Shown piece after piece: positions 1,185-62,935 of a stretch of DNA of 64,000 bases. This DNA is from an uncultured Coriobacteriaceae bacterium (GTDB lineage Bacteria > Actinomycetota > Coriobacteriia > Coriobacteriales > Atopobiaceae), in contig CACXFC010000242.1 of NCBI GenBank assembly GCA_902766835.1, positions 7,132 to 71,131 of the forward strand. The letters run 5' to 3'. The stretch's first letter is position 1, and the number at the start of each line of letters is the position of its first letter. The position numbers and the translations under genes are program-made. A model generated the notes under the pieces. That model ran no database searches. It saw only the letters and a program-made list of their open reading frames with translations, and was not told the DNA's origin.

Positions 1185-3017
1185 ATGGATCTTGATATTC
1201 GCCGCGTCATCAAAAGCGTGCCCAAGGACCATGGTCCGGAAGATCTGAAGCCGCTGTGGACTCCTTGGGGCGAGACGATGGGCGAGGTCGCCTACACGAG
1301 CCATCCGCGCCCCCTGCTGGCGCGCGACACCTGGCAGACGCTCGATGGCTGGTGGGAGTGTGCGTTCGAGCCCTGCGCACAGGCGGCGCGGGCATGGCGC
1401 GACGCCGAGCCCCCCGCCGCCTTTACCCAGCGCATTCGCGTGCCGTTCTCGCCTGAGGCAGCGCTCTCCGGCGTGGGGCGCCAGCTGCAGCCCAACGAGC
1501 TTTTGTGGTATCGCCGCACCTTCCAGATGCCCGAGCTGCCCAGCCGTGGTGCATGTGTGCTGCACTTCGATGGCGTGGACTTTGCCTGCGCCGTGTATGT
1601 CAACGGCAGCAAGGTCGCCGAGCACGAGGGTGCCTACCTTCCCTTTGAGGCCGACATCACCCACCTGCTGGTTGAGGGCGACAACACGCTGATGCTTTGC
1701 GTGTACGACCCAAGCGAGACGGGCACGCAGCTGCGCGGCAAGCAGCGCCTCAAGCGCGGCGGCATGTGGTATACCGCGCAATCGGGCATCTGGCAGTCGG
1801 TGTGGCTCGAGCTCATGCCCCGAACGCATGTGGAGGAGCTGCTGCTGGAGCCCGATGTGACAACGGGCGAGCTGATCGTGTCGGTGCGGGCAAACGGCAT
1901 TGCCATGCTGAGCGTCGACGTGCTTTCCGGCGGGGAAGTGGTGGCCTCGGGCATCCAGTCGCGCCGCGTGGGCGGGCGCATGACCCTCTCGCTTTCCGTG
2001 CCAGACTATCACCTGTGGACCCCCGACGATCCCGCGCTGTACGACGTGGTAGCTACCTACGGCGACGATGTGGTGCGCAGTTACGTGGCATTTCGCACGG
2101 TGGGCCTCGAGGCCGACGAGCAGGGTGTCCTGCGGTTCTGCCTCAATGGCCAGCCCCTGTTCCTGCGCGGTCTGCTCGACCAAGGCTATTGGCCCGACGG
2201 CCTTCTTACGCCCCCTTCGCAGGAGGCAATGGCATTCGACCTGCGTGCCGTGCGCCGGGCCGGCTTCAACATGGTGCGCAAGCACATAAAGGTGGAGTCC
2301 GAGCGCTTCTATGCGCTCTGCGACCAGATGGGCGTGTTGGTGATGCAGGACATGCCTAGCGGAGGCGACCTGCCCTCCGACCGCTGGGCGCGCGACCTCC
2401 CCACGCTGTGGCGCAGGTCTTGGCATGCGCAGCGCGACGACACCGCCAAGGGTCGCGAGCGTCTTGGTGCCGCCGACGAGGCCTACCGTGACGAGTGGCT
2501 GCGGACCTGCGAGGACGTGGTCCAGCGGCTGTCCGCCCATCCCTGCATTGTCAGCTGGGTGCTCTTCAACGAGTCGTGGGGCCAGTTCGACTCGGCAAAG
2601 GCCACGCAGTTGGTCTGGGACCTCGATGCAACCAGGCCCGTGGTCTCTACCAGCGGCTGGTACGACCAGGGCTGCGGCGACTTCCATGCCGTGCACAACT
2701 ACTTCCGCGGCATGCACATGTTCGACGACCCCTTCGCCCCCACGGGCAAGCGTGGCGTTCGTGCGCAGATATACGGCGAGTTTGGCGGGCTTACCTGGAC
2801 GGTGCCCGAACACGCCTCGCTCGACCACTCGTATGGGTATGCCGAGTTCGAGACCTTCGGACAGTGGAAGGCAGCCCTGCACGAGCTGATTGCCAGCGTC
2901 GATGCGCTTGAGGCACAAGGGCTTTCCGGTTTCGTGTACACGCAGCTCACCGACGTGGAGGAAGAGACCAACGGCCTGCTCACCTACGACCGGCGCGTGG
3001 ACAAGCTAGAGGCATAG
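1185..3017 (+). CDS. glycoside hydrolase family 2 protein
   Basis: 610-aa ORF with SD AAGGAAAGGAAG. GH2-like blocks are present: NMVRKHIKVE, VMQDMP, WVLFNESWG (NE acid/base). No signal peptide. Confidence 0.75.
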   Translation: MDLDIRRVIKSVPKDHGPEDLKPLWTPWGETMGEVAYTSHPRPLLARDTWQTLDGWWECAFEPCAQAARAWRDAEPPAAFTQRIRVPFSPEAALSGVGRQLQPNELLWYRRTFQMPELPSRGACVLHFDGVDFACAVYVNGSKVAEHEGAYLPFEADITHLLVEGDNTLMLCVYDPSETGTQLRGKQRLKRGGMWYTAQSGIWQSVWLELMPRTHVEELLLEPDVTTGELIVSVRANGIAMLSVDVLSGGEVVASGIQSRRVGGRMTLSLSVPDYHLWTPDDPALYDVVATYGDDVVRSYVAFRTVGLEADEQGVLRFCLNGQPLFLRGLLDQGYWPDGLLTPPSQEAMAFDLRAVRRAGFNMVRKHIKVESERFYALCDQMGVLVMQDMPSGGDLPSDRWARDLPTLWRRSWHAQRDDTAKGRERLGAADEAYRDEWLRTCEDVVQRLSAHPCIVSWVLFNESWGQFDSAKATQLVWDLDATRPVVSTSGWYDQGCGDFHAVHNYFRGMHMFDDPFAPTGKRGVRAQIYGEFGGLTWTVPEHASLDHSYGYAEFETFGQWKAALHELIASVDALEAQGLSGFVYTQLTDVEEETNGLLTYDRRVDKLEA

Positions 3018-3155
3018 GGCAGCAGAGCGGTGTGCCCTCGTGCGCGCTGACTCATCTGCAGTTTCAAGCTGTGTCCCCTACATGCCCTGCTGTGGGAGCA
3101 GCTTGGCATCCATTACACTGTTGATGAATAAGGGTTAGGCTGAGAAGGAGCTTCA

Positions 3156-3175
3156 ATGGCAGAGTTCGTGTACCA
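3156..3175 (+). repeat. attL core (copy of ettA codons 1-7)
   Basis: Identical to 10331-10350. It is preceded by a strong SD, GAGAAGGAG (3142-3150), and now opens only a 15-codon ORF ending at TAG 3201-3203. Confidence 0.85.
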
Positions 3176-3247
3176 TTTACCGCTTCTAGAAAACAGCTGG
3201 TAGTAGGCTTAAAATGTTTTAATCGTAACAAACTACCAGATAAACTT

Positions 3248-3267
3248 ATGGCACAATCTATGGCACA
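3248..3267 (+). repeat. tandem ATGGCACA boxes (candidate integrase arm-type sites, left arm)
   Basis: ATGGCACAATCTATGGCACA. The same two-box arrangement occurs at 10283-10303 in the same orientation. The box also resembles the core start TATGGCAGAG. Confidence 0.5.
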
Positions 3268-3288
3268 AAAGAGAGCCGTAGGGGTGTG

Positions 3289-4449
3289 ATGGAAGTGTTC
3301 TACACAGGTGCAAGTTTGAAGCAAATGCACGATCGGAAGGGCAAGCCGTGGCGCGGAACCTTGCAGTACAAGGATCCCGAAACGCTCAGGTGGAGACAGA
3401 TCACCAAAGTCTTTCCTGATTGCAAGTACAAGAGCGAAGCCAAAAGGGCTTTGGCTGACTGGCAAGCCGAAATGGAAGAAAAGGCAGCTCTTAGAGACAC
3501 GGGAAGAACAGTCGAGACAGTCATTCGCGGATATCTGTCGAACCAAAGGAGCCTGAACAGGATCAGCGTAGTAACCTACCAGAACTCTTTGCGGCTAGCT
3601 GAGACGATCATCTTTCCTAGGATCGGTAAGAAGATCTTTATCGATCTGACGAAGCTAGAAGTCCAGAAGTTCGTGAACGATCTATCGAAGAAGGGCTACA
3701 AGCCTAGTTCTGTACGCACAATCTTTGCCATAGTTTCAAAGACTTACAAGGACTCATTTAGGCGTGACGAAGTTCTGAAGGATCCAACGAAGGGTGTGGA
3801 GCTACCAAGAAATCTCAAGGGACAGATTAACTATCTTGGAGCTGAAGGAAGGCGCAAATTCCTTGCACTAATGACTGGATCGAGCATCTTCTACCTACCG
3901 ACTATGATCGCCTATTACAGCGGCATGAGAGCGGGTGAGATCTGCGCTTTGCAATGGAAGGATATCAACCTTGCAATTGGCACGATCAATATTACAAAGA
4001 CGGCGAAAGACTACCGCACGGACTCAGGCAGGCATGAGGTGGAGATCTCTAACCCGAAGACTCCCAAGAGCGTAAGAACTATCCCAATAATCGATGAACT
4101 GGGCAAGATTCTTAAGGACGCGGCGAAAGATGCGAAGCCAAAGCCTACAGACTACGTGATCGAGTGGAGAAACCCTAGGCTCTTGTGCTCAAGCTTTCAG
4201 AAGTGGGCTACAAGAAACGAGGTAGCAGGAGAAGCGGGTAAGCCAATCACAATGCATGGTCTGAGACACACTTTTGCAACCTTGGGTGTGCAAAGCGGCA
4301 TGGATATCAAGAGCCTTTCATCCATCCTTGGGCACAGCAGCACGGCAATGACTCTAGACACGTACGCAAGCGACGATGAGCAAGCAAAGCGTTTTGCGAT
4401 GAACAACCTATCTAGGTTCTTTCAGAACGAGAGTGAGAATGATCTTTGA
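3289..4449 (+). CDS. tyrosine-type site-specific integrase
   Basis: Catalytic signature blocks MRAGEICALQWKDI (Arg), HGLRHTFATL (H-x-x-R) and LGHSSTAMTLDTYAS (His..Tyr). The N-terminal SAM-like region has VVTYQNSLRL. ATG at 3289 (GTG at 3286 is also possible). Confidence 0.9.
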   Translation: MEVFYTGASLKQMHDRKGKPWRGTLQYKDPETLRWRQITKVFPDCKYKSEAKRALADWQAEMEEKAALRDTGRTVETVIRGYLSNQRSLNRISVVTYQNSLRLAETIIFPRIGKKIFIDLTKLEVQKFVNDLSKKGYKPSSVRTIFAIVSKTYKDSFRRDEVLKDPTKGVELPRNLKGQINYLGAEGRRKFLALMTGSSIFYLPTMIAYYSGMRAGEICALQWKDINLAIGTINITKTAKDYRTDSGRHEVEISNPKTPKSVRTIPIIDELGKILKDAAKDAKPKPTDYVIEWRNPRLLCSSFQKWATRNEVAGEAGKPITMHGLRHTFATLGVQSGMDIKSLSSILGHSSTAMTLDTYASDDEQAKRFAMNNLSRFFQNESENDL

Positions 4450-5042
4450 TGGACTATCTAGAGTGGATGAAACTACAAGAGAGCATGATCAGCTATGCGG
4501 AACAGTTGCGTGAGAAGATCAGCTTTATCGACCCTGAAGGAAGGCGCAAGCTGGATCCGTACTACTTCCTTTCTGGTGAGGTTGCCGCCTACAAGCTTCT
4601 AAGCTCTTGGATCAACTCCATGAGAAGGGGAAACGACGTTGTAGATGAGAGGGTAGGAGATCTAGTAGACCTGATCAGGAAGTTGGTCGAAGAGGATTAC
4701 GAAGACTATCAGATCTACGAAGCGGAAATAAGCATGCCACTTTGGTATGAGCTTATGAAGGGCTTCAGTGGTGATGCATTATCTAACTTCAATTCAGAGA
4801 TCCTAGTGCTTGCAAGTATTGCGGAAGTGAGATCTGGAATCTCGCCTGAGAACACGATTATTTGCACAATGACCGACGATGAGCTAACAGACGCAAATCT
4901 TGTTTCCTATGCGTATAGCCTAGTTCATGACTACCTGTTAGGATTGTCGAGGGAAGATTTAGAGTCGTTCGCACAAAAGGGCTTTGGCCTGAATGCGGAA
5001 AAAGGCGAACTCTACAAGCTTCACTTCAACTTATTCCAATAG
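4449..5042 (+). CDS. hypothetical protein (element-encoded, helical, acidic)
   Basis: ATG at 4449 overlaps the integrase TGA (TGATG coupling). 197 aa with no motif I recognise. Confidence 0.6.
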   Translation: MDYLEWMKLQESMISYAEQLREKISFIDPEGRRKLDPYYFLSGEVAAYKLLSSWINSMRRGNDVVDERVGDLVDLIRKLVEEDYEDYQIYEAEISMPLWYELMKGFSGDALSNFNSEILVLASIAEVRSGISPENTIICTMTDDELTDANLVSYAYSLVHDYLLGLSREDLESFAQKGFGLNAEKGELYKLHFNLFQ

Positions 5043-5055
5043 AAGAGAAAGGGCT

Positions 5056-5400
5056 ATGGGAATGAATAAGAGCGAAGCACAGGCTAAGCTAAGGGAACTT
5101 GCACGTGAGATTGGTGATTTCGACTTGTATGATGCAGCACAGGACACAGATCTTGCCTTCAGTCTTCTAGAAAAGAAGTTTGAAGATGCGGCAACACCTA
5201 TTGTCGAGATTTCGGGCAAGCAACTCACAAACAAGAGTTGCTTTAAGAAGAATGCCGACAGAAGAAAGTTCCTTCAGAGGGTGATTCGCAAAGAGACCAA
5301 TGATGAGTTCAAGGTCTTGTATGAACAGGAACTAGAGCTAATTGAGACTTATGCGTTTCTTGCTTTGGAGTATCTGTTTGGTGAGATTGCCACAAAGTAG
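5056..5400 (+). CDS. hypothetical protein (element-encoded)
   Basis: ATG at 5056 follows AGAAGAGAAAGGG. 114 aa, MGMNKSEAQAKLRELAREIG..., no recognisable motif. Confidence 0.55.
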   Translation: MGMNKSEAQAKLRELAREIGDFDLYDAAQDTDLAFSLLEKKFEDAATPIVEISGKQLTNKSCFKKNADRRKFLQRVIRKETNDEFKVLYEQELELIETYAFLALEYLFGEIATK

Positions 5401-5465
5401 CCTTTATCAGGTCTTTACCGTTGGATGGTCGAGTTGCCGTCTAATGGAAATAGCACCTCTTTTCA

Positions 5466-5474
5466 TGCTACAAT
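5466..5474 (+). promoter_or_regulatory. extended -10-like box TGCTACAAT
   Basis: TGnTAcAAT lies about 8 nt upstream of the first base of the long stem at 5482. No convincing -35. Confidence 0.3.
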
Positions 5475-5481
5475 CCACATA

Positions 5482-5617
5482 ACCACAACCGCGGGAACTT
5501 GTCTGTAAAGGCAAGTGTTCGCATCTTTGACAATCCAGCTAGCTACCACCTTGGAGGGCACTCCTGCCTTTCGGGTGAATGCTAGCTGTTAAAGCTGCGA
5601 ACGCTCGCGGTTGTGGT
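5482..5617 (+). ncRNA. candidate structured RNA / 5' leader (multi-stem, ~136 nt)
   Basis: A perfect 12-bp closing stem pairs ACCACAACCGCG (5482-5493) with CGCGGTTGTGGT (5606-5617). Inner pairings: GTTCGC (5517-5522) with GCGAAC (5598-5603), and CAGCTAGC (5536-5543) with GCTAGCTG (5581-5588). Local hairpins at 5494-5516 and GGAG/CTCC at 5553-5564. No long ORF in the interval. Confidence 0.45.
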
Positions 5618-5696
5618 GACTGTGGTTGGAGTGTCCTCCAAAATGGTCTCGCACCCCTTCCATGGTGAATGTCGGAGTTCCTTGGAAGGAGTCGCT

Positions 5697-5786
5697 ATGA
5701 GTGGTTCTAACAACAGCGGTTGCAGCCTCGTAATTCTGGTCGCGCTGGGGGTCTTTTTGGGCCTCGTGCTCTTTGCTGTGGGATAA
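5697..5786 (+). CDS. 29-aa hydrophobic peptide (type I toxin-like or leader peptide)
   Basis: ATG at 5697 follows GGAAGGAG. Sequence MSGSNNSGCSLVILVALGVFLGLVLFAVG, then TAA at 5784-5786. The SD GGAAGG (5684-5689) can pair with CCTTCC (5656-5661). It is below the ORF-track size cutoff. Confidence 0.4.
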   Translation: MSGSNNSGCSLVILVALGVFLGLVLFAVG

Positions 5787-5789
5787 CGC

Positions 5790-6176
5790 ATGACAAAGGG
5801 CAGGGAAGGCTATGAAATACTATTAGACGCAACCATACTACTGGTGTATCTAATAAACAAGAATAGCGACATTCTGTATGGAATCCTTCCCCGCCCGTTC
5901 ATGCGTAACCATTTCAATGATCTGTTGGCAGGCTGCTTGTTTCCTTCATATGTCAACATCGTGCTAAGGACTGCCAGATTTGATTATCAGATAGACAGTC
6001 TACTTAGTGTCCTGATCACAGAAATGGTATGCAGCTTGTTCTGGGAAGTACTTGCGCCGCTGTATCTAGCTAGAAGTACGTGTGATCCTATAGATGTTAT
6101 CTGCTACATATTAGGTGGAATGTTGTATCTCATGTTCATCCTTATTGTTTCAAATAGAAGGGATTGCCAACAATGA
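5790..6176 (+). CDS. small integral membrane protein
   Basis: 128 aa with 3-4 hydrophobic segments (ILLVYLI, LLAGCLFPSYV, LITEMVCSLFWEVLAPL, ICYILGGMLYLMFILIV). Starts 3 nt after the peptide stop. Confidence 0.6.
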   Translation: MTKGREGYEILLDATILLVYLINKNSDILYGILPRPFMRNHFNDLLAGCLFPSYVNIVLRTARFDYQIDSLLSVLITEMVCSLFWEVLAPLYLARSTCDPIDVICYILGGMLYLMFILIVSNRRDCQQ

Positions 6177-6394
6177 CAGACAACGATAACAAGAGCGAGA
6201 ATAGTATCGGCATGTACATTGCTCTGCTTATCATTTTTCTTCTGATTGGCTTTATCAGCAACAGCTGCAACGCACGCTCAAAGCAACGATCCTATACACC
6301 CATGACTGATGATGAGAGGGTCGAGTTCTTCAACAACATATCTGACCCCAGCACACCAGAAGGCAAATGGTACGAGGAAACGTATGGGGACTGA
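6173..6394 (+). CDS. small single-pass membrane protein
   Basis: ATGA start/stop overlap with the preceding ORF. MTDNDNKSENSIGMYIALLIIFLLIGFISNS... has one TM segment. Confidence 0.5.
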   Translation: MTDNDNKSENSIGMYIALLIIFLLIGFISNSCNARSKQRSYTPMTDDERVEFFNNISDPSTPEGKWYEETYGD

Positions 6395-6416
6395 GTCTCT
6401 GAACTTTGGAGAACGG

Positions 6417-6441
6417 CTGGATGCCTACGCAGGGCATCCAG
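6417..6441. terminator. hairpin between convergent genes
   Basis: CTGGATGCC-tacgcag-GGCATCCAG sits between the stop at 6394 (+) and the stop at 6451 (-). Confidence 0.5.
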
Positions 6442-6450
6442 CTCGCCCAC

Positions 6451-7029
6451 CTATTCACGGACAATCCCACGCTCTTTCGCGTACTTGTAGAAGACCGCGC
6501 GGCTGATCCCAACGATCGAGCAGATATCGTTAACGCTCTTGTCGGTGTTCTGGTAGAGATCGAAGGCGGTTGCGAGCTTGTCTTCGCTGACCTTTGACCT
6601 ACCGCCACAACGCCCGTCCTTCTCGCGCTTGATTCTCTGGCCCTCAGCCCTTCTCTCTGCCAAGATCTCGCGTTCGTACTGAGCAAAGCAAGCGGTGATC
6701 CCAAAGAAGAGACGGCCTGTAGCCGTGCGCGTGTCGCATTCGCCTTCTTTGAGGGAAACGAGAGCCACGCCCTTTTCGTTAAGGGTATTGCACAGGCTGA
6801 GAAGATCAGAGAGGTTGCGGGAAAGACGGCTGAAGGATTCGATATAGAGTTCGTCACCCTCAGAGAGAACAGAGAGAAGCTTCTTAAGTTCAGCGCGGTT
6901 TGTGTCTTTGCCGCTCTTCTTTTCGCTGTAGATGTTATCAGCGGGAATGCCCAACTGATCAGCCATCTTCAGTTGGCGTGCAAGGTTCTGGCCCTGAGAA
7001 GAGACGCGGGAATAGAAGAACTTGGACAT
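6451..7029 (-). CDS. serine recombinase (small resolvase/invertase type)
   Basis: MSKFFYSRVSSQGQNLARQ (catalytic Ser block), GDELYIESFSRLSRN, and a C-terminal HTH (SVNDICSIVGISRAVFYKYAKE). Internal ATG at 7029 chosen. Confidence 0.85.
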   Translation of the reverse strand: MSKFFYSRVSSQGQNLARQLKMADQLGIPADNIYSEKKSGKDTNRAELKKLLSVLSEGDELYIESFSRLSRNLSDLLSLCNTLNEKGVALVSLKEGECDTRTATGRLFFGITACFAQYEREILAERRAEGQRIKREKDGRCGGRSKVSEDKLATAFDLYQNTDKSVNDICSIVGISRAVFYKYAKERGIVRE

Positions 7030-7051
7030 TTGGAACCCCCAAAAGGTCGAT

Positions 7052-7191
7052 GTTTTGTCGTTCAACTGTATTTTAACGTAGACAAACAAAAAAGACAATA
7101 TAGACAGTCAAAAAAGACAATCTTTTTTCTCAGCCCTAGCGGTCTACCTTGGCTTAGCCCTTGCGTCTATTTTCGTAGAGCAAAAAAGACA
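7052..7191. promoter_or_regulatory. iterated motifs upstream of the recombinase (candidate res/operator region)
   Basis: AAAAAAGACA occurs as a direct repeat at 7088-7097, 7110-7119 and 7182-7191. TTTGTC (7054-7059) and GACAAA (7081-7086) form an inverted pair 21 bp apart. Near-palindrome AAAAAAGAcaaTCTTTTTT at 7110-7128. Confidence 0.4.
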
Positions 7192-7367
7192 GTCCTTGCA
7201 ACGCGTAACGACAAAAAGTTGGGTCAACTTGAATGATCCGAAAGCCACAAAAACCATTTCTCAGTGAAGCCAAGAGTAAAGAAAGATCAGGGCTGTAGGG
7301 GTCTGCGGCCCTGCTTTTCTTTTGGCTGTTTTGTTTGAAAAATCCTTTGAAGAAAGAAGGTCTGGAT

Positions 7368-7532
7368 ATGACGAAAGAAAAGAGAGTGGATCGATCAAAG
7401 TACTTTTCCCATTTGGGCGTAGAGATCCCGCGCGATCAGCACGACAGAATCAGGGCGATAGCCAAGAGTAAAGAGATCTCGATCAGCCAACTTGTGCGGC
7501 GTGCGCTGAATGAGTACTTGGCTAAGTGCTAA
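7368..7532 (+). CDS. ribbon-helix-helix (CopG-like) DNA-binding protein
   Basis: ATG at 7368 follows GAAGG. MTKEKRVDRSKYFSHLGVEIPRDQHDRIRAIAKSKEISISQLVRRALNEYLAKC has an RHH-like strand plus two helices. Confidence 0.6.
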   Translation: MTKEKRVDRSKYFSHLGVEIPRDQHDRIRAIAKSKEISISQLVRRALNEYLAKC

Positions 7533-7544
7533 GGGGTGATCACC

Positions 7545-9140
7545 TTGGCTTCAAAGTATTTGAGTGAATCGGATTTGGAGCTAAGCCAATGGGATCGAGA
7601 AAGAGAGATCGGATTGATAGCCGTCCCGTGCGGCCTAGGTAAGACGTATGCAAGCGTTCATTGGTTGTGAAGGATCCTAGGGATTGATCCTAAAGAAACG
7701 CTGTTGCTATCGCCTAGACGTGGGATCAGGAAACAGACGCTTGATAGCTACCCCGATCAGGTTGAGCGATTCACGGTCAGCGGATCAGCCTTTTCTAGCA
7801 AAGTTCAGATCGAGACGGTTCACAAGATCGGCTGTTGGTATCGCTTGGATTATGCCTACCCCAAACCTAGGCTTGTGATCATCGATGAATTTCACACCCT
7901 GTTTAGCGAAACCCACTTTGCTAGGGATCTGATCTATTTCTATCAGCAGCTTCTAGAGTGGATCGATGATCCTAGCGTTACCCTGATCGCCCTAACGGCC
8001 ACGACAACGCTACCCCTAGAGTTTGTGAACCAACAGCCCTTCAAGGGCTTTGAATGGCTCTATCAGAGCTTTCAAGGATTTAGGATCCGCAAGATATCTA
8101 GGGATCTTGATCCGCCTTACAAAGCGCAAGTTGTGCAGATCGAGAGCGGCAAGAGCCTAGAGACAGTTCTTAGACAATGCCCCGCAAGCCCCGATAACAA
8201 ACAGCTTGTTTTCGTGCGGGGAACAGCCGCAAAGCTTGTTAGCTTGGCTGAGAGTGAGGATCGATCTAGTTGGCTTTGCTCTGAAGAATCCAAGAGAGAA
8301 GTAAATGGTATCAAGGCGGCTGATCTGATGGATCAGGATCATCTTTCATCGATTCTTAGCGGCTACCTACCTGAGACAGTAGATCGGATCTATCTAACTA
8401 GCGCCTATCGTGAGGGGATTAACATCCACGATGAAGCGGTGCAGGAAGTAATTATCGAGGGTGCAAGTGATATCGAGCTGATTCAGGCGTTAGGGCGTGT
8501 GCGGCACCCGATCAAACGTCTGATCATCGTCATTGATGCCCGCAAGTTTCAGAACGGTGATCGAAAGATCAGAGAAGCGCTTGATCTGTTGGATAGCGGG
8601 GATCTAGAAGCTTATTACAAAAGGCAAGAGAAGCAGGATTTAGAAGGTTTTGAAGGCGAGAGAGTGCCCAACTTAGTCTTTAGGAACAAGTACACAAGGG
8701 AACTGAGGTTCAACTACCTAGCGCTTTGCTTTTGGTTATTTGACTACTACAGTTCAGCTTGTGCCACTCAGCAGGATTGGAAAGAGATCGAGCTATCAGG
8801 GCGATTGTTTCCTAGCAAGAGAGATTACTTCAGCAGGATCCTAGATCCCTACTCTGAAGGGCCTATCACCTATGACCTGATCAGCTTTGGAAAGCCTAGT
8901 GTAGATCGAGAGAATGCGGAAAAGCTAGAGCGCTTCGATTGGAAAGCCTGAAGCGGAAAAGAGTTGTGCGCAAAGAGCGATCTAGCCTTAGAGTTTGTAA
9001 GCGCTTTGGATTTGCATAACGCAAGCGACTATTCGCAAATGGCACTATCAGGGATCTATGACAACTTTCCTAAGTACTTTGTAAGAAAGCACAGAGTTAA
9101 GAAAAATGGAAAGAGAAAAGTAGTTTATGAATTGGCTTAG
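7545..9140 (+). pseudogene. SF2-type helicase reading frame interrupted by two in-frame TGA codons
   Basis: One frame is open from 7533 to TAG 9138-9140 except for TGA at 7668-7670 and 8949-8951. Walker A AVPCGLGKTYA precedes the first TGA. After it come motif II VIIDEFH, TATT and motif VI QALGRVRH. The 62 codons after the second TGA look coding (..YDNFPKYFVRKHRVKKNGKRKVVYELA). TTG start at 7545 follows AAGGGG. Confidence 0.7.
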
Positions 9141-9152
9141 CCTTTGCGGTGC

Positions 9153-9218
9153 AAAGGCCATTTTTCCAACCAATTTTCCTATGGGATATTAAGAAGTTTG
9201 GTTGGAAAAATGGCCTTT
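9153..9218. repeat. perfect 21-bp inverted repeat directly after the helicase frame
   Basis: AAAGGCCATTTTTCCAACCAA (9153-9173) pairs with TTGGTTGGAAAAATGGCCTTT (9198-9218) across a 24-nt loop. An AT-rich core follows at 9249-9284, flanked by the direct repeat AAGAAAAGA (9240-9248, 9285-9293). Confidence 0.7.
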
Positions 9219-9433
9219 CATTCGCAATATCTGATCCAAAAGAAAAGAGTTTTCAGGATAAAAAATATATTTTATAATTAAATTAAGAAAAGAAATCAGG
9301 CCTGAAATCAAAGATCTATTAAGGAAACTACGTTTCCCTTAGCTTCGCTTGCTTCGCAAGCTTGCTAATTCCTTTCCTTGTGTCGGTTGCTGCGCAACCG
9401 CCACGCCTTTTCAAGAGAAAAGAGGTTTTAGAA

Positions 9434-9622
9434 ATGAATGAAGAGAGATTCAAGATAACGATCTATGCAGATGGTAAGACGCTTGAAGTGCTCGATCTGA
9501 TCTCTGATTGATCGGATCTAGGGATCGAGGAAACGGCTTCCTTACTTTTGGCGCATTCGACCGAAAGAATCAGCGATCTTTACAGGGCAATTTCTGCAAC
9601 GGCCCTAGGAGGTGATCGCTAA
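9434..9622 (+). pseudogene. 62-codon ORF with an in-frame TGA
   Basis: ATG at 9434 follows AAAGAGG. MNEERFKITIYADGKTLEVLDLISD-TGA(9509-9511)-SDLGIEETASLLLAHSTERISDLYRAISATALGGDR. The TAA at 9620-9622 overlaps the ATG of the next gene (TAATG). Confidence 0.35.
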
Positions 9623-10020
9623 TGAATTTGGTTCAGAGCATGGAAAGCTGGTATCTCGCAAGGGATAAGCAGCATCATCTATTGGGCTTAGCCAAGAGCC
9701 AACTAGAAGCGGCCTATGCGGCTGGAATTAATGACGCTAGTTTGGGCAACTACCTAACCAACAAATACTCTTTCTTGGCTAGTGATCTTCGCAAGTTCAG
9801 CCACTTTGAAGGGATCACATCAGCAGAGATCGAAAGACGGTTTGCGGACGATATCGATCACATCCACCACAAGCTAGAGAGCGATATCAGAGCCAATCAG
9901 GCGGATCAGGCTACAGATGAAGCTACGTTCAATGACGTTGTGTTGTGGCCTTTGGTTAAGGAAGAGCTAGAACAGATCGCCCCGCCTGAAGTTGTGATAG
10001 CGCTCGATCTGAAGGCGTAG
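9622..10020 (+). CDS. hypothetical protein (element-encoded)
   Basis: 132-aa ORF with SD TAGGAGGTG. No recognisable motif. Confidence 0.6.
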   Translation: MNLVQSMESWYLARDKQHHLLGLAKSQLEAAYAAGINDASLGNYLTNKYSFLASDLRKFSHFEGITSAEIERRFADDIDHIHHKLESDIRANQADQATDEATFNDVVLWPLVKEELEQIAPPEVVIALDLKA

Positions 10021-10282
10021 GAGCCTTTCTAAGGGCCTAGAAGTGCGGGGATCGATATCTAAGACGTTGGGATAGAAGGCACCCCGAAAACAGGCTTAAA
10101 AGTGCTCTAGTGATATTTTTTGACAGCCTGAGAGGGTTTTTGGTGCATGCTTGATGCTATTGCCCCAAACGTACCCCGCCCCCTACAATTAAATGCATGG
10201 GTTCTGTTGTGGCTCACGTAACGACGAAAGTACAACAAATGATGGATAGATCCCAATCATCCCGAACAATCCGAAAAGATAT

Positions 10283-10330: not shown

Positions 10331-12010
<1,680 letters not shown>

Positions 12011-53101: not shown

Positions 53102-53389
53102 ATGATAACGCTTACTAAAAAGACCCCTGATGTCATTCAGGCAGAGTTGGCCGAGCGAGTTCGTGCGCGGCGCAGGGAACTTCGTTATTCACAGGCCGAA
53201 TTGGCTGAGAGGTCTGGGGTCTCGCTCGGCTCGCTCAAGCGGTTTGAGCGTACACATGAGATATCGCTTGCCTCGCTCGTCAAGCTCTCCATCGCGCTCG
53301 ATTGCCGTGAAGATTTCGAAACGCTTTTTGCCCGCAGGCGATATGGTTCAATCGAAGAGGTGATTGCCGATGTCGAACATACTGCCTAA
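53102..53389 (+). CDS. hipB: XRE-type HTH antitoxin (HipB-like)
   Basis: RRRELRYSQAELAERSGVSLGSLKRFE HTH. The 3' end overlaps the HipA start. Start uncertain (ATG at 53084 or 53102, no clear SD). Confidence 0.6.
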   Translation: MITLTKKTPDVIQAELAERVRARRRELRYSQAELAERSGVSLGSLKRFERTHEISLASLVKLSIALDCREDFETLFARRRYGSIEEVIADVEHTA

Positions 53390-54509
53390 ACAGCTTGCTG
53401 GATTAAAGCACCTCTCGGTCAACCTGAGTGGTGCGCGTGTGGGCACGCTAGCCCTCAGCAGGCAGGGCACAGTGTTGTTCGAGTATGCTCCCGAATGGCT
53501 CGCAAGGGGTTTCTCCATCAGCCCCTTTTCTCTTCCCCTTCGATCTGGGTTGTTCGAGGCATTACCGGATATGCCCGACGGACTGTTTGGCATCTTTCGC
53601 GACAGTCTCCCCGATGACTGGGGGAGACTTCTTCAGGATCGCGCGCTTGCCGAGGCGGGTGTTCGTCCCGGTTCTCTATCGAGCTTGGCCCGCTTGGCGC
53701 TGGTGGGTACGATGGGACTTGGCTCCCTTGAGTATGAGCCTTGCTGTGCGATTGGTGCTCGCGAAACACCGGAGAGCGACTGGGATTACGTCTCACGGGA
53801 GTGCCAGCGGCTCATGGAGGGTAATACTTCAGAAGCATTGGACATGCTCTATGCACGAGGCTCCTCTTCTGGCGGTGCTCGGCCCAAGGTAATGGTCGAC
53901 ATGGATGGCGAACCATGGATTGTCAAATTCCCCTCGAATTTCGATGGTCCAAATGCGGGAATACGGGAATACAAACTTGCACAAGCTGCACGGAAGTGTG
54001 GCATCACCATGTCGGAAGTCAAACTCATCCCCTCGAAAGCTTGCGGCGGCTACTTTGCAACCAAACGCTTTGACCGTTCTGTGGACGATTTCGGTGTGAC
54101 GCATAAGGTTCACATGGCGAGTGCCGCGGCGCTGCTCGAGGCCTCGCCCTTCGATGTGCTCGATTACCGCGATCTCATGCAGCTGACTCTCGAGTTGACC
54201 GGTAGCGTGTCAGACTGTGAGCAGCTCTATCGCGTCATGTGCTTTAACGTACTGGTAGGCAACTGCGACGATCATGCCCGCAACTTCTCCTATATATGCC
54301 ATGACGGTTTGTGGAGATTGGCGCCGGCGTACGACCTGACCCAGGATGAGGGGTTTCTGGGTGAGCATGCCACGCTTGTGAATGGCAAGGGTGCCGACAT
54401 TACCGAAGAAGACCTGCTTGCAGTAGGCAGGACGGGTGGCGTTGCCATGCACAAAGGCCGTGAGATACTGAGGCAGACCGCAGCGTGCGTGGCTGACGAT
54501 TTGGGTTAG
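53370..54509 (+). CDS. hipA: HipA-family Ser/Thr kinase toxin
   Basis: N-terminal coupling domain (VGTLALSRQGTVLFEYAPEWL), SSGGARPK, and the catalytic block GNCDDHARNFS. Confidence 0.85.
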   Translation: MSNILPKQLAGLKHLSVNLSGARVGTLALSRQGTVLFEYAPEWLARGFSISPFSLPLRSGLFEALPDMPDGLFGIFRDSLPDDWGRLLQDRALAEAGVRPGSLSSLARLALVGTMGLGSLEYEPCCAIGARETPESDWDYVSRECQRLMEGNTSEALDMLYARGSSSGGARPKVMVDMDGEPWIVKFPSNFDGPNAGIREYKLAQAARKCGITMSEVKLIPSKACGGYFATKRFDRSVDDFGVTHKVHMASAAALLEASPFDVLDYRDLMQLTLELTGSVSDCEQLYRVMCFNVLVGNCDDHARNFSYICHDGLWRLAPAYDLTQDEGFLGEHATLVNGKGADITEEDLLAVGRTGGVAMHKGREILRQTAACVADDLG

Positions 54510-61549: not shown

Positions 61550-62935
61550 ATGGCACAAGATTGGAACAAGCTCGCTACTGACATCATCGAGCTGGTGGGC
61601 GGGGAGGACAACATCACCTCCATCACGCACTGCGTCACGCGCCTGCGCTTCATGCTCAAGGACGAGAGCAAGGCCGACGACCAGAAGATCGGCCAGCTGA
61701 ACGGGGTCATTCAGGTGATGCATGCCTCCGGCCAGTACCAGGTGGTCATTGGCAACAAGGTCGGCGAGGCCTATGACGCCGTGGTAGCGCAGCTACCCGG
61801 TCTGGCTGCCGGCGAGGTGGCAGCCGATGCGGCCGAGGAGAAGAAGAAGGGATTCAGCCTCAACGCGCTCTTCGACATCGTCTCGGGCATCTTCGTTCCC
61901 TTCATCGGCATCTTCACTGCCTCGGGTCTTGCGCGCGCCCTTGTGACCATGGCCGTCACCCTGGGCTGGCTCGACCAGGCAAGCTCCACCTACGTGGTGC
62001 TCAACGCCATCGGCGACGGCGTCTTCCAGTTCCTGCCCATCTTCATTGCCCGCACTGCTGCCAAGAAGTTCAACTGCAACGAGTGGATTGCCATGGGCGT
62101 GGCTGCCTTCTTGGTCACCCCGTCGATGGTGGGCCTGAAGGACGCCTTTGCCGAGGCAGGCGGCCCGACCCTCTTCGGCCTGCCCGTCATTCTGCCCGAC
62201 TCCGGCTACCTGCAGGCGGTGTTCCCCATCATCTTTGCCGTCTACCTGCAATCTTGGCTCGAGAAACCCATGAAGCTGCTGCCGGGCGTGCTGCGTGACC
62301 TTCTGGGCAACATGCTGGTCTTGGTGTGCACCTCCCTCATTACCCTCATGGTTGTGGGTCCCGTGATCAACACCGTCTCTGGCTGGATTGCCGCTGGCCT
62401 CATGGCCATCCTGGACGTCGCTCCCGTGGTTGCCGGCTTCCTCATCGCCGCCCTTTGGCCCGTCCTCATCATCTTCGGCATGCATTGGGGCATCATCCCC
62501 ATCATGATCTCCAACCTCATGACGCTGGGCTATGACGTCATCGGCCCCATCACCAATGGCACCAACTACGTCATCGGCGCCGTCGTGCTGGCCATCCTGC
62601 TTAAGACCAAGAAGCAGGGCGTGCGTTCCACCGCAACCGAGTGCCTTGCCTCTGCCTGGCTGGGTGCCATCACCGAGCCTGCCATCTACGGCCTGCTTCT
62701 GAAGTTCAAGCGTCCGTTCCTTACCATGGCCCTCTCCTGCGGCATCTCGGGCGCCATCACCGCAGCCGTCGGCGTGCATCAGGTGGGCATCCTGACCACC
62801 TCGATCCTCACGCTGCCCGTGCTGGCTGCCACCAACGGCGTGCCCCACGTGGTTGGCATCATCGTGGCCGCAATCGTTGGCTTCGTGAGCACCTACCTCG
62901 TTGGCTTCAACGACAGCATGGTGGTAGACGAGTAG
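61550..62935 (+). CDS. PTS EIIBC, glucose/beta-glucoside family
   Basis: ATG at 61550. NITSITHCVTRLRF (EIIB Cys) followed by a polytopic EIIC. No EIIA domain. Confidence 0.85.
   Translation: MAQDWNKLATDIIELVGGEDNITSITHCVTRLRFMLKDESKADDQKIGQLNGVIQVMHASGQYQVVIGNKVGEAYDAVVAQLPGLAAGEVAADAAEEKKKGFSLNALFDIVSGIFVPFIGIFTASGLARALVTMAVTLGWLDQASSTYVVLNAIGDGVFQFLPIFIARTAAKKFNCNEWIAMGVAAFLVTPSMVGLKDAFAEAGGPTLFGLPVILPDSGYLQAVFPIIFAVYLQSWLEKPMKLLPGVLRDLLGNMLVLVCTSLITLMVVGPVINTVSGWIAAGLMAILDVAPVVAGFLIAALWPVLIIFGMHWGIIPIMISNLMTLGYDVIGPITNGTNYVIGAVVLAILLKTKKQGVRSTATECLASAWLGAITEPAIYGLLLKFKRPFLTMALSCGISGAITAAVGVHQVGILTTSILTLPVLAATNGVPHVVGIIVAAIVGFVSTYLVGFNDSMVVDE

Follow-up and report, generated by a model that had tools for sequence, protein, structure and literature searches.

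Recoding of stop codons in mobile elements is so far known from phages, and organism-level reassignment of UGA to Trp is known from a few reduced or candidate-phylum bacteria. Leaky reading of UGA by tRNA-Trp is familiar from the A1 protein of Q-beta, from low-level read-through in Bacillus subtilis and from tRNA-Trp variants with a 4-bp anticodon stem or of the Hirsh type. Gut phages show gene-specific recoding of TGA to Trp ("code 4") and of TAG to Gln ("code 15"), mostly in late genes, with the DNA-replication machinery often left in the standard code; suppressor tRNAs are detectable in 35-40% of the recoded phage genomes, and a role of recoding in the regulation of expression has been proposed (Borges et al., bioRxiv 10.1101/2021.08.26.457843). 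Among bacteria, UGA-to-Trp reassignment has been reported from about 30 genera in four phyla; the main text mentions neither Coriobacteriia nor Actinomycetota (PMC13092985), and the two groups are likewise unmentioned in a Codetta screen of 250,000 genomes (PMC8629427). Conserved in-frame stops with a low ratio of nonsynonymous to synonymous substitution rates (dN/dS) have also been described in bacterial genes, where reduced expression has been suggested as their effect (Belinky et al. 2021, PMC7918605). Our own search of the literature for recoded plasmids or for recoding in Coriobacteriia found no report. Here, we analyze a stretch of 64,000 nucleotides (the window; contig CACXFC010000242.1 of assembly GCA_902766835.1, positions 7,132 to 71,131) from an uncultured bacterium of the Atopobiaceae, which carries an integrated element belonging to a family of small plasmids. 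Three in-frame TGA codons in the helicase gene and in an adjacent 62-codon gene of this element are very probably translated, most likely as Trp, and constitute an ancestral trait of the core module in a plasmid family associated with Atopobiaceae.

Compared with the recoded phages, the family shows the same combination of a mobile element, a standard-code host and in-frame stops of a single type in a subset of genes, together with the alignment of TGA with Trp, the existence of recoded and unrecoded close relatives and the scarcity of TGA terminators. Different from the phages, it consists of small plasmids and an integrative element without virion or lysis genes, its host belongs to the Actinomycetota (Atopobiaceae), three complete replicons carry neither a suppressor tRNA nor a code-change gene, and the recoded part is a helicase/replication-type module. 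With the table 4 organisms (Mycoplasmatales, insect endosymbionts, and Patescibacteriota JAKLIH01; PMC13092985) it shares TGA at conserved Trp positions and the interchange with TGG, though in plasmid genes only, whereas TGA still terminates 5 of about 60 host genes and is internal to none, and the plasmids also end genes in TGA. The mechanism that we propose below resembles the leaky UGA systems, since host tRNA-Trp would compete with release factor 2 (RF2), Trp would be inserted and less full-length product would be made; however, the TGAs considered here lie inside the catalytic core, number up to seven per gene and have no special context, different from the Q-beta A1 type, and the needed efficiency would be far above classical leakiness. 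As in the cases of Belinky et al. (PMC7918605), nonsense codons are kept under purifying selection, but here they are family-wide, exclusively TGA, several per gene and tied to one plasmid module.

In-frame TGA codons in a plasmid core module

The frame of the helicase, a member of superfamily 2 (SF2), runs from GTG 7536 to TAG 9138-9140 and is interrupted solely by two TGA codons (TGA 1 and TGA 2; Table 1). The first (ASVHWL-TGA-RILG) lies between the Walker A motif (PCGLGKT) and the DEFH motif, and since Walker A is upstream of it, a working ATPase requires read-through of TGA 1. The second (FDWKA-TGA-SGKEL) is followed by 62 more codons. TGA 3 is located inside the small open reading frame (ORF) 9434-9622, whose terminal TAA overlaps the next ATG (TAATG); the peptide predicted across this codon, if read as Trp, is TLEVLDLISDWSDLGIEETASLLLAHSTER. 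An earlier note on this DNA had described three in-frame TGAs, at 7668, 8949 and 9509, with no frameshifts; direct reading confirmed them along with all of its coordinates, and the helicase start that it gave (TTG 7545) is in the same frame as GTG 7536. Its observations that the terminal stops on the right-hand side are TAA or TAG (7530, 9138, 9620, and 10018) and that on the left-hand side TGA stops occur in TGATG and ATGA overlaps (4447 and 6174) were equally borne out.

The match of the helicase to Pfam PF04851 reaches 41.6 bits (cut-off, 22.5), and Walker A, DExH and the QxxGRxxR of motif VI are invariant in the alignment of homologues, among which P0003 is full length (533 amino acids [aa]). 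Standard-code gene calling stores the helicase as a 415-aa fragment, the ORF between the two TGAs, which is identical on 8-9 contigs from independent NCBI, ENA, and Logan assemblies. Because of this identity, and because the TGAs recur in diverged relatives, the TGAs of the window are not sequencing or assembly errors.

The closest relatives are three sequences of 9,048 bp from three samples (L001, L002, and L003), which are rotations of one sequence with 30-nucleotide (nt) terminal overlaps and thus represent a free circular plasmid. The L001 helicase is 97% identical to that of the window and keeps both TGAs, and its small ORF keeps TGA 3. L004, L005, and L019 (89% protein identity) likewise retain the two helicase TGAs and end the gene in the same TAG, and their helicase frame stays open across an in-frame 3-codon indel. 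The small ORF of L004 and L005 is clearly diverged, judging by eye rather than from a formal alignment; it has a TGA at the position that corresponds to TGA 3, and its end overlaps the next gene in the same way. The comparison with other copies of the element, which the earlier note had recommended, accordingly reveals that relatives keep all three TGAs (TGA 3 by eye in L004/L005), those of the helicase across a synonymous divergence (dS) of 0.5-0.7.

The dN/dS values, calculated by the Nei-Gojobori method, are 0.12-0.28 for the 41 codons before TGA 1, 0.06-0.12 for the middle of the helicase gene and 0.17-0.28 for the 59-62 codons after TGA 2 (dS to the L004 lineage, 0.57-0.71; Fisher p = 2e-4). 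On the branch leading to the integrated copy, with L004 as the outgroup, 22 codon changes are synonymous and 7 are nonsynonymous (p = 1e-9 versus neutrality). None of the marks of a pseudogene (mixed stop types, frameshifts, relaxed selection) was found. The alternative put forward in the earlier note, namely, three independent knock-outs in a decaying, domesticated element, is excluded by the TGAs being common to free plasmids and to the 89% relatives, by purifying selection before TGA 1 and after TGA 2 (dN/dS, 0.12-0.28) and by the open frame.

Across the family, the DNA sequences of 13 helicase copies were compared. The in-frame stops number two in the window lineage, five in L006 and L020 (60% identity), two in L007 (54% identity), seven in L022 and L024 (a circular plasmid of 6,646 bp and 38% GC), and zero in L008, L021, L023, and L009, with more TGAs in the plasmids of lower GC (38-45%). 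They occupy 12 distinct columns of the helicase alignment, and in 12/12 the codon is TGA, with no TAA or TAG (p ~6e-8); among simulated single-base nonsense changes in these genes, TGA accounts for 21-25% and TAA or TAG for 75-79%. Under the same expectation for random nonsense changes, the chance that three out of three nonsense codons in the window are all TGA is p ~0.016.

As for the residue inserted, half of the TGA columns (6/12) are dominated by Trp in the other sequences (p ~4e-8), while the other columns comprise two with Phe/Tyr, one with Arg/Lys, one with Ala/Val, one with Pro (that of TGA 1) and one that is variable. No TGA column is dominated by Cys or Gly, a lone Cys being found at column 105 and a lone Gly at column 43. 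Homologues carry Pro, with a few Ser or Ala, at TGA 1 (column 45); a conserved Trp at TGA 2 (column 488), where L006, L020, and L024 have TGA too; and Glu (P0159) or Thr (P0161), both in full-length proteins of 62 aa, at TGA 3. The earlier note had suggested that TGA is read as Trp or Gly and had asked which of Trp, Arg or Gly the homologues show: translation as such and Trp are supported family-wide and Gly is not, but among the window codons Trp was recovered only at TGA 2. The sequence downstream of the TGAs revealed no preference (+4 base: A, 9; T, 7; G, 7; C, 4).

Further TGAs occur in neighboring genes of the relatives. In particular, the 62-aa gene is replaced, between the helicase and the 132-aa gene, by a gene of about 150 aa in L008 (7362-7847), L006 (3796-4245), and L020 (3949-4407). 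This gene has five in-frame TGAs per copy and a TAA end, and its dN/dS is 0.18 at a dS of about 1 between L008 and L006 and 0.05 between L006 and L020. TGG and TGA are interchanged between RVMRWIDYS in L008 and RVER-TGA-ISYS in L006; conservation of TGA, as opposed to TGG, between these two copies was not significant in a Fisher test done by hand (p ~0.14). No counterpart of the gene was found among 5.8 billion standard-code protein predictions. Furthermore, a Tyr codon of the 132-aa window gene corresponds to an in-frame TGA in L020, and the ribbon-helix-helix (RHH)-like gene of L022 contains a TGA in the context LIQA-TGA-IDT. According to hand tallies, TGA makes up 5/8 Trp-type codons in the ~150-aa gene of L008 versus 0/23 in all its other genes, and 3/12 in the helicase module of L001 versus 0/25 elsewhere; exact tests by hand gave p values from ~3e-4 to 0.03 for this uneven distribution, depending on how the genes are grouped.

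TGA also serves as a terminator on the same plasmids, where it ends about 8 of 40 genes. One of these genes ends in LHFNLFQ-TGA, a position occupied by TAG in its orthologue; the genes for the helix-turn-helix (HTH) proteins of L001 (450 aa) and L022 (457 aa) end in TGA as well, the latter, by coordinate arithmetic, in an ATGA overlap. On the integrated copy, the integrase gene terminates at a TGA that overlaps the start of the next gene as TGATG and is followed by a TAG three codons further; TGA is likewise the terminal codon of the 128-aa and the 73-aa gene, an ATGA overlap being located at 6173-6176. If their terminal TGAs were fully read through, three proteins would be longer by 73, 118, and 31 residues, the last two values referring to the 128-aa and 73-aa genes, respectively. 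It follows that TGA, ending some genes and being internal in others, appears to be both stop and sense within one replicon, and that, since it still terminates, a codon with a dual meaning fits better than a clean reassignment. The origin of the module from a TGA-recoded donor, as the earlier note had envisaged, is not supported: the plasmids favor TAG as a stop in the same unusual way as their Atopobiaceae host, which is not fully recoded, TGA ends genes on the same replicons, and neither the window nor any of three complete plasmids has a suppressor tRNA.

Possible decoders of UGA

ARAGORN predicted no tRNA in the window, its flanks, any relative, or the complete circles L001, L008, and L024, and thus the suppressor tRNA for which the earlier note had proposed a search is absent from the window and from three complete plasmids. 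The Rfam search yielded no selenocysteine insertion sequence (SECIS) or other RNA family, the only hits being chance miRNA-like matches to a long hairpin. As the elements are without a tRNA, whatever decodes UGA must be supplied in trans. A plasmid family that maintains as many as a dozen translated TGAs on one replicon while encoding no tRNA would imply either that a widespread actinobacterial family of the gut reads UGA ambiguously or that the plasmids use the suppressor tRNAs of other elements.

The identity of the host is indicated by its EttA, which is 87-88% identical to those of Thermophilibacter, Olsenella, Paratractidigestivibacter, and Lancefieldella, and by exact host proteins deposited as "MAG: ... 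[Atopobiaceae bacterium]". Its genes in the window and right flank (62% GC) end in TAG (39), TAA (16), and TGA (5). TGA usually dominates among stops at such a high GC content, and the host pattern is very unusual. Thermophilibacter (TAG, 11; TGA, 3; TAA, 2) and Lancefieldella (TAG, 7; TAA, 5; TGA, 2) share the TAG-rich bias, which makes TGA-poor stops a family trait, and the plasmid genes (46-48% GC) are TAG rich and TGA poor in the same way. The host TGA ends look genuine, since some are found in ATGA or TGATG overlaps and one just before the ribosome-binding site and ATG of the next gene. The stop usage was considered as proof of a recoded host and dropped, because the related genera are alike and the host ends genes in TGA. 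Literature searches combining Atopobiaceae, Olsenella or Coriobacteriia with stop codons or RF2 returned nothing relevant, and none was found on TAG-preferring stop usage in Atopobiaceae.

It is possible to hypothesize, with about an even chance in our judgment, that the decoder is an ambiguous, leaky reading of UGA by the host in this TGA-poor, TAG-rich family. The TGAs, on this view read through by the ribosomes, are old conserved codons in two core genes (those of the SF2 helicase and the 62-aa protein) of a resolvase/RHH/helicase plasmid family; one member of the family has integrated, by means of its tyrosine integrase, into an Atopobiaceae chromosome, where it adjoins the beginning of ettA. 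In the host translation system, UGA would be a poor terminator, at which tRNA-Trp competes with RF2; the codon could then end some genes and be read through often enough elsewhere for full-length helicase to be made. Host genes would avoid TGA both as stop and as sense codon, whereas plasmid genes of low product demand and low GC content would tolerate or exploit it, with the consequence that the helicase module may be throttled and its expression low or conditional. The host apparatus as decoder, its efficiency and any regulatory role are what we infer here.

Several points weigh against this proposal. A conserved Trp column underlies just one of the three window TGAs (TGA 2). The TGAs are concentrated in the helicase module and missing from other plasmid genes rich in Trp, which uniform decoding at the level of the host does not by itself predict. 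No internal TGA occurs in any of about 57 host genes of the window supported by GC content at third codon positions (GC3), so that there is no direct sign that the host decodes UGA, and the TGA-poor usage (3/50 in the window versus 5/30 in relatives; p = 0.14) could have other causes. Genes with five to seven TGAs, such as those of L006 and L024, demand high read-through at each codon, and ordinary bacterial UGA leakiness, at a few per cent or less, would give essentially no product. Finally, the only relative in PLSDB, the 7.6-kb plasmid pRGI00100 of an uncultured bacterium (HG796260.1, L025; 34.5% GC), encodes a helicase homologue (6008-7699; 25% identity) with five in-frame TAGs, one of them on the invariant Gln of motif VI, and with no in-frame TGA or TAA. 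In-frame TAG occurs in other ORFs of pRGI00100 too, with the exception of the two longest others (~280 and ~180 aa), no tRNA gene is found on it, and it looks like a TAG-recoded plasmid. The pRGI series presumably represents a rat-caecum plasmidome, the record itself giving no source. Decoding of TAG as Gln has been described for phages, and to our knowledge no bacterial host is known to perform it; the in-frame TAGs of pRGI00100, taken together with this, point toward a suppressor supplied in trans.

Such a suppressor is the core of the main rival explanation, which we consider unlikely overall: a tRNA(UCA) provided in trans by another mobile element, for example, a TGA-recoded phage, would gate the helicase/small-protein module, which would be silent without the helper and switched on at its arrival, in a satellite-like manner, while the integrase, resolvase, and HTH protein would stay in the standard code and could end in TGA. 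This would account for the concentration of TGAs in particular genes while TGA ends others on the same replicon, for the absence of a tRNA from every complete plasmid, for a host whose genes lack internal TGAs and in some cases end in TGA, and for the five TAGs in the distant pRGI00100 helicase, including the one on the motif VI Gln; moreover, gut phages of the same animal kinds show gene-specific TGA and TAG recoding with suppressor tRNAs (bioRxiv 10.1101/2021.08.26.457843). However, no helper phage was identified, Actinobacteria are unmentioned in the same study, and recoded phages usually leave replication genes unrecoded. The elements, in addition, show no evident link to phages: PHROG matches are limited to the integrase, the repressor-like RHH protein, and the helicase, with no virion, packaging, or phage-interference genes; phage and IMG/VR collections, including an IMG/VR scan and a phage tblastn search, contain no match to the element; and in several samples the plasmids are recovered as free circular assemblies, where a phage linkage is not evident. 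A nucleotide search of the island against PLSDB and phage records gave no match either, and a scan of GTDB genomes returned a single distant copy, without TGA, in a metagenome-assembled genome of Clostridia.

A true code-4 setting, in which the real hosts of the plasmids or this whole lineage have fully reassigned TGA to Trp and the TGAs are synonymous codons that drifted on a low-GC replicon, appears improbable. The interchange of TGA and TGG, the bias toward Trp columns, the larger number of TGAs at lower plasmid GC (38-45%) and the very limited use of TGA stops in the host would be expected from it. On the other hand, the TGA ends of host genes fall within ATGA/TGATG overlaps or shortly ahead of the next ribosome-binding site, 0/~57 host genes contain an internal TGA, and a plasmid gene ends in TGA where its orthologue has TAG, with full read-through adding 73-118 residues. 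The element, moreover, truly resides in Atopobiaceae, its junctions having been reproduced independently, and this group is not among the cases reported by large screens of genetic codes (PMC8629427, PMC13092985).

Distinctly improbable is the view that the helicase and the small gene are dead or dispensable relics and the TGAs passive nonsense mutations (TGG or CGA to TGA). Single transitions of these two codons would strike Trp and Arg columns preferentially, the 450-aa HTH gene is missing from the integrated copy, and in-frame stops with low dN/dS are widely reported in bacteria (PMC7918605). Nevertheless, 0/13 copies carry a TAG, a TAA, or a frameshift, although 75-79% of random nonsense changes would be TAA or TAG, strong purifying selection acts on the flanks of the stops and on the window branch, and the same TGAs persist in circular plasmids that replicate and between helicases separated by a dS of 0.5-0.7. 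Other forms of UGA recoding, that is, as selenocysteine, for which UGA is the codon, as glycine (code 25, whose bacteria live in rumen and gut communities), or as termination followed by re-initiation into split polypeptides, are very improbable, considering the absence of SECIS or other Rfam matches, of any Cys- or Gly-dominant TGA column and of a consistent downstream context, and the scattering of the stops over many places inside the RecA-like core, at odds with split subunits.

Coming back to leaky decoding by the host, we tentatively suggest, as a possibility short of an even chance, that efficient UGA-to-Trp reading combined with rare UGA stops could amount in Atopobiaceae, a common family of gut and rumen bacteria that is annotated with the standard code, to a cryptic ambiguous code, visible only in low-GC plasmids, and that, more broadly, small gut plasmids may carry stops of a single type (TGA here and TAG in pRGI00100) in their helicase modules as gates requiring a decoder in trans. 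Since standard-code gene callers split or drop such genes, these modules are invisible or labeled as pseudogenes in current annotations.

The integrated element and its chromosomal context

The element occupies 7.2 kb between perfect 20-nt direct repeats, within a low-GC island (~3000-10100; 45-48% GC versus 60-63% in the host genome), and its features are listed in Table 1. As in tyrosine-recombinase integrative elements, the integrase lies near one end, the element is flanked by repeats and the insertion is reproduced across assemblies. The same chromosomal junctions are found in the independent metagenome assemblies L010 and L011, from which it follows that the element truly resides in Atopobiaceae. 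The insertion falls exactly at the start-codon region of ettA, leaving its ORF intact and swapping the native upstream region for the right end of the element. The 450-aa HTH gene of the free plasmids is not present in the integrated copy.

Table 1. Features of the integrated element and of its borders, in window coordinates
Feature	Position	Strand	Evidence or remark
attL, left copy of the 20-nt repeat ATGGCAGAGTTCGTGTACCA	3156-3175	+	Repeat search (family D7); equals first 20 nt of ettA
Tyrosine integrase	3289-4449	+	Pfam Phage_integrase (3e-23), PHROG 1, gene call in L010
Four small genes (197, 135, 128, and 73 aa), no assigned function	4449-6394	+	Gene calls
Serine recombinase (resolvase), TAG end	6451-7029	-	Pfam Resolvase on identical gene in L010
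Iteron-like repeats CAAAAAAGACAAT, 3-4 copies, between resolvase and RHH genes	7079-7197	+	Repeat families D2 and D8
RHH (CopG-type) gene, TAA end, directly upstream of helicase	7368-7532	+	Pfam RHH_1, gene calls
SF2 helicase gene (ResIII/DEAD N-terminal domain), 534 codons, TAG end	7536-9140	+	Walker A, DEFH, QxxGRxxR
In-frame TGA 1	7668-7670	+	Kept in L001, L004, L019
In-frame TGA 2	8949-8951	+	Conserved-Trp column 488
Terminator-like hairpin, then long hairpin	9140-9227	+	Inverted repeat I1; conserved in relatives
Promoter-like site (TTTTCA-17-TATAAT), AT-rich stretch upstream of small ORF	9250-9278	+	Consensus match only
Small 62-codon gene, TAA end overlapping next ATG	9434-9622	+	Full-length 62-aa homologues
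In-frame TGA 3	9509-9511	+	Kept in L001; by eye in L004/L005
132-aa core gene, no assigned function, TAG end	9622-10020	+	Gene calls
attR, right copy of the 20-nt repeat, start of ettA (10331-12010)	10331-10350	+	Repeat search

Searches with PADLOC, PDB sequences, and Pfam took the function of the helicase no further than SF2 and gave nothing for the small, the 132-aa, and the ~150-aa proteins. The long hairpin 3' of the helicase has about 21 paired positions (-28.5 kcal/mol; z = -6), and the hairpins there are possibly a terminator or an origin element. A 17-mer, TTGGCTTAGCC(C/T)TTGCG, is shared by the region upstream of the RHH gene (7149-7165) and the end of the helicase gene (9132-9148). 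Together with the hairpin region (9132-9239) and the CAAAAAAGACAAT iterons, this 17-mer is a candidate origin, operator, or res site.

The tetranucleotide composition of the island is biased, with 105 GATC observed versus 27.5 expected (3.8-fold) and 0 CCGG versus 21 expected. The excess of GATC is 4.5-fold in L001 and 4.1-fold in L022, and GATC is not found at all in L007 and L009. These biases are probably restriction-modification or methylation footprints that differ between lineages.

Outside the element, the window contains a HipA-type kinase gene (53109-54509; Pfam Couple_hipA and HipA_C on ORF 53364-54509). The segment upstream of it in the window, 53109-53360, whose frame is different from that of the gene in L026, has no Pfam match. 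On the same-species contigs L026 and L027 the HipA gene is preceded by an overlapping HTH_3 (HipB-like) gene, an arrangement that suggests a chromosomal toxin-antitoxin pair. The gene for a phosphotransferase system (PTS) EIIBC component (window 61550-62935) is represented in another strain (L027, 8487-9868) by two ORFs of 317 and 151 aa, which are split by a frameshift and not by a TGA.

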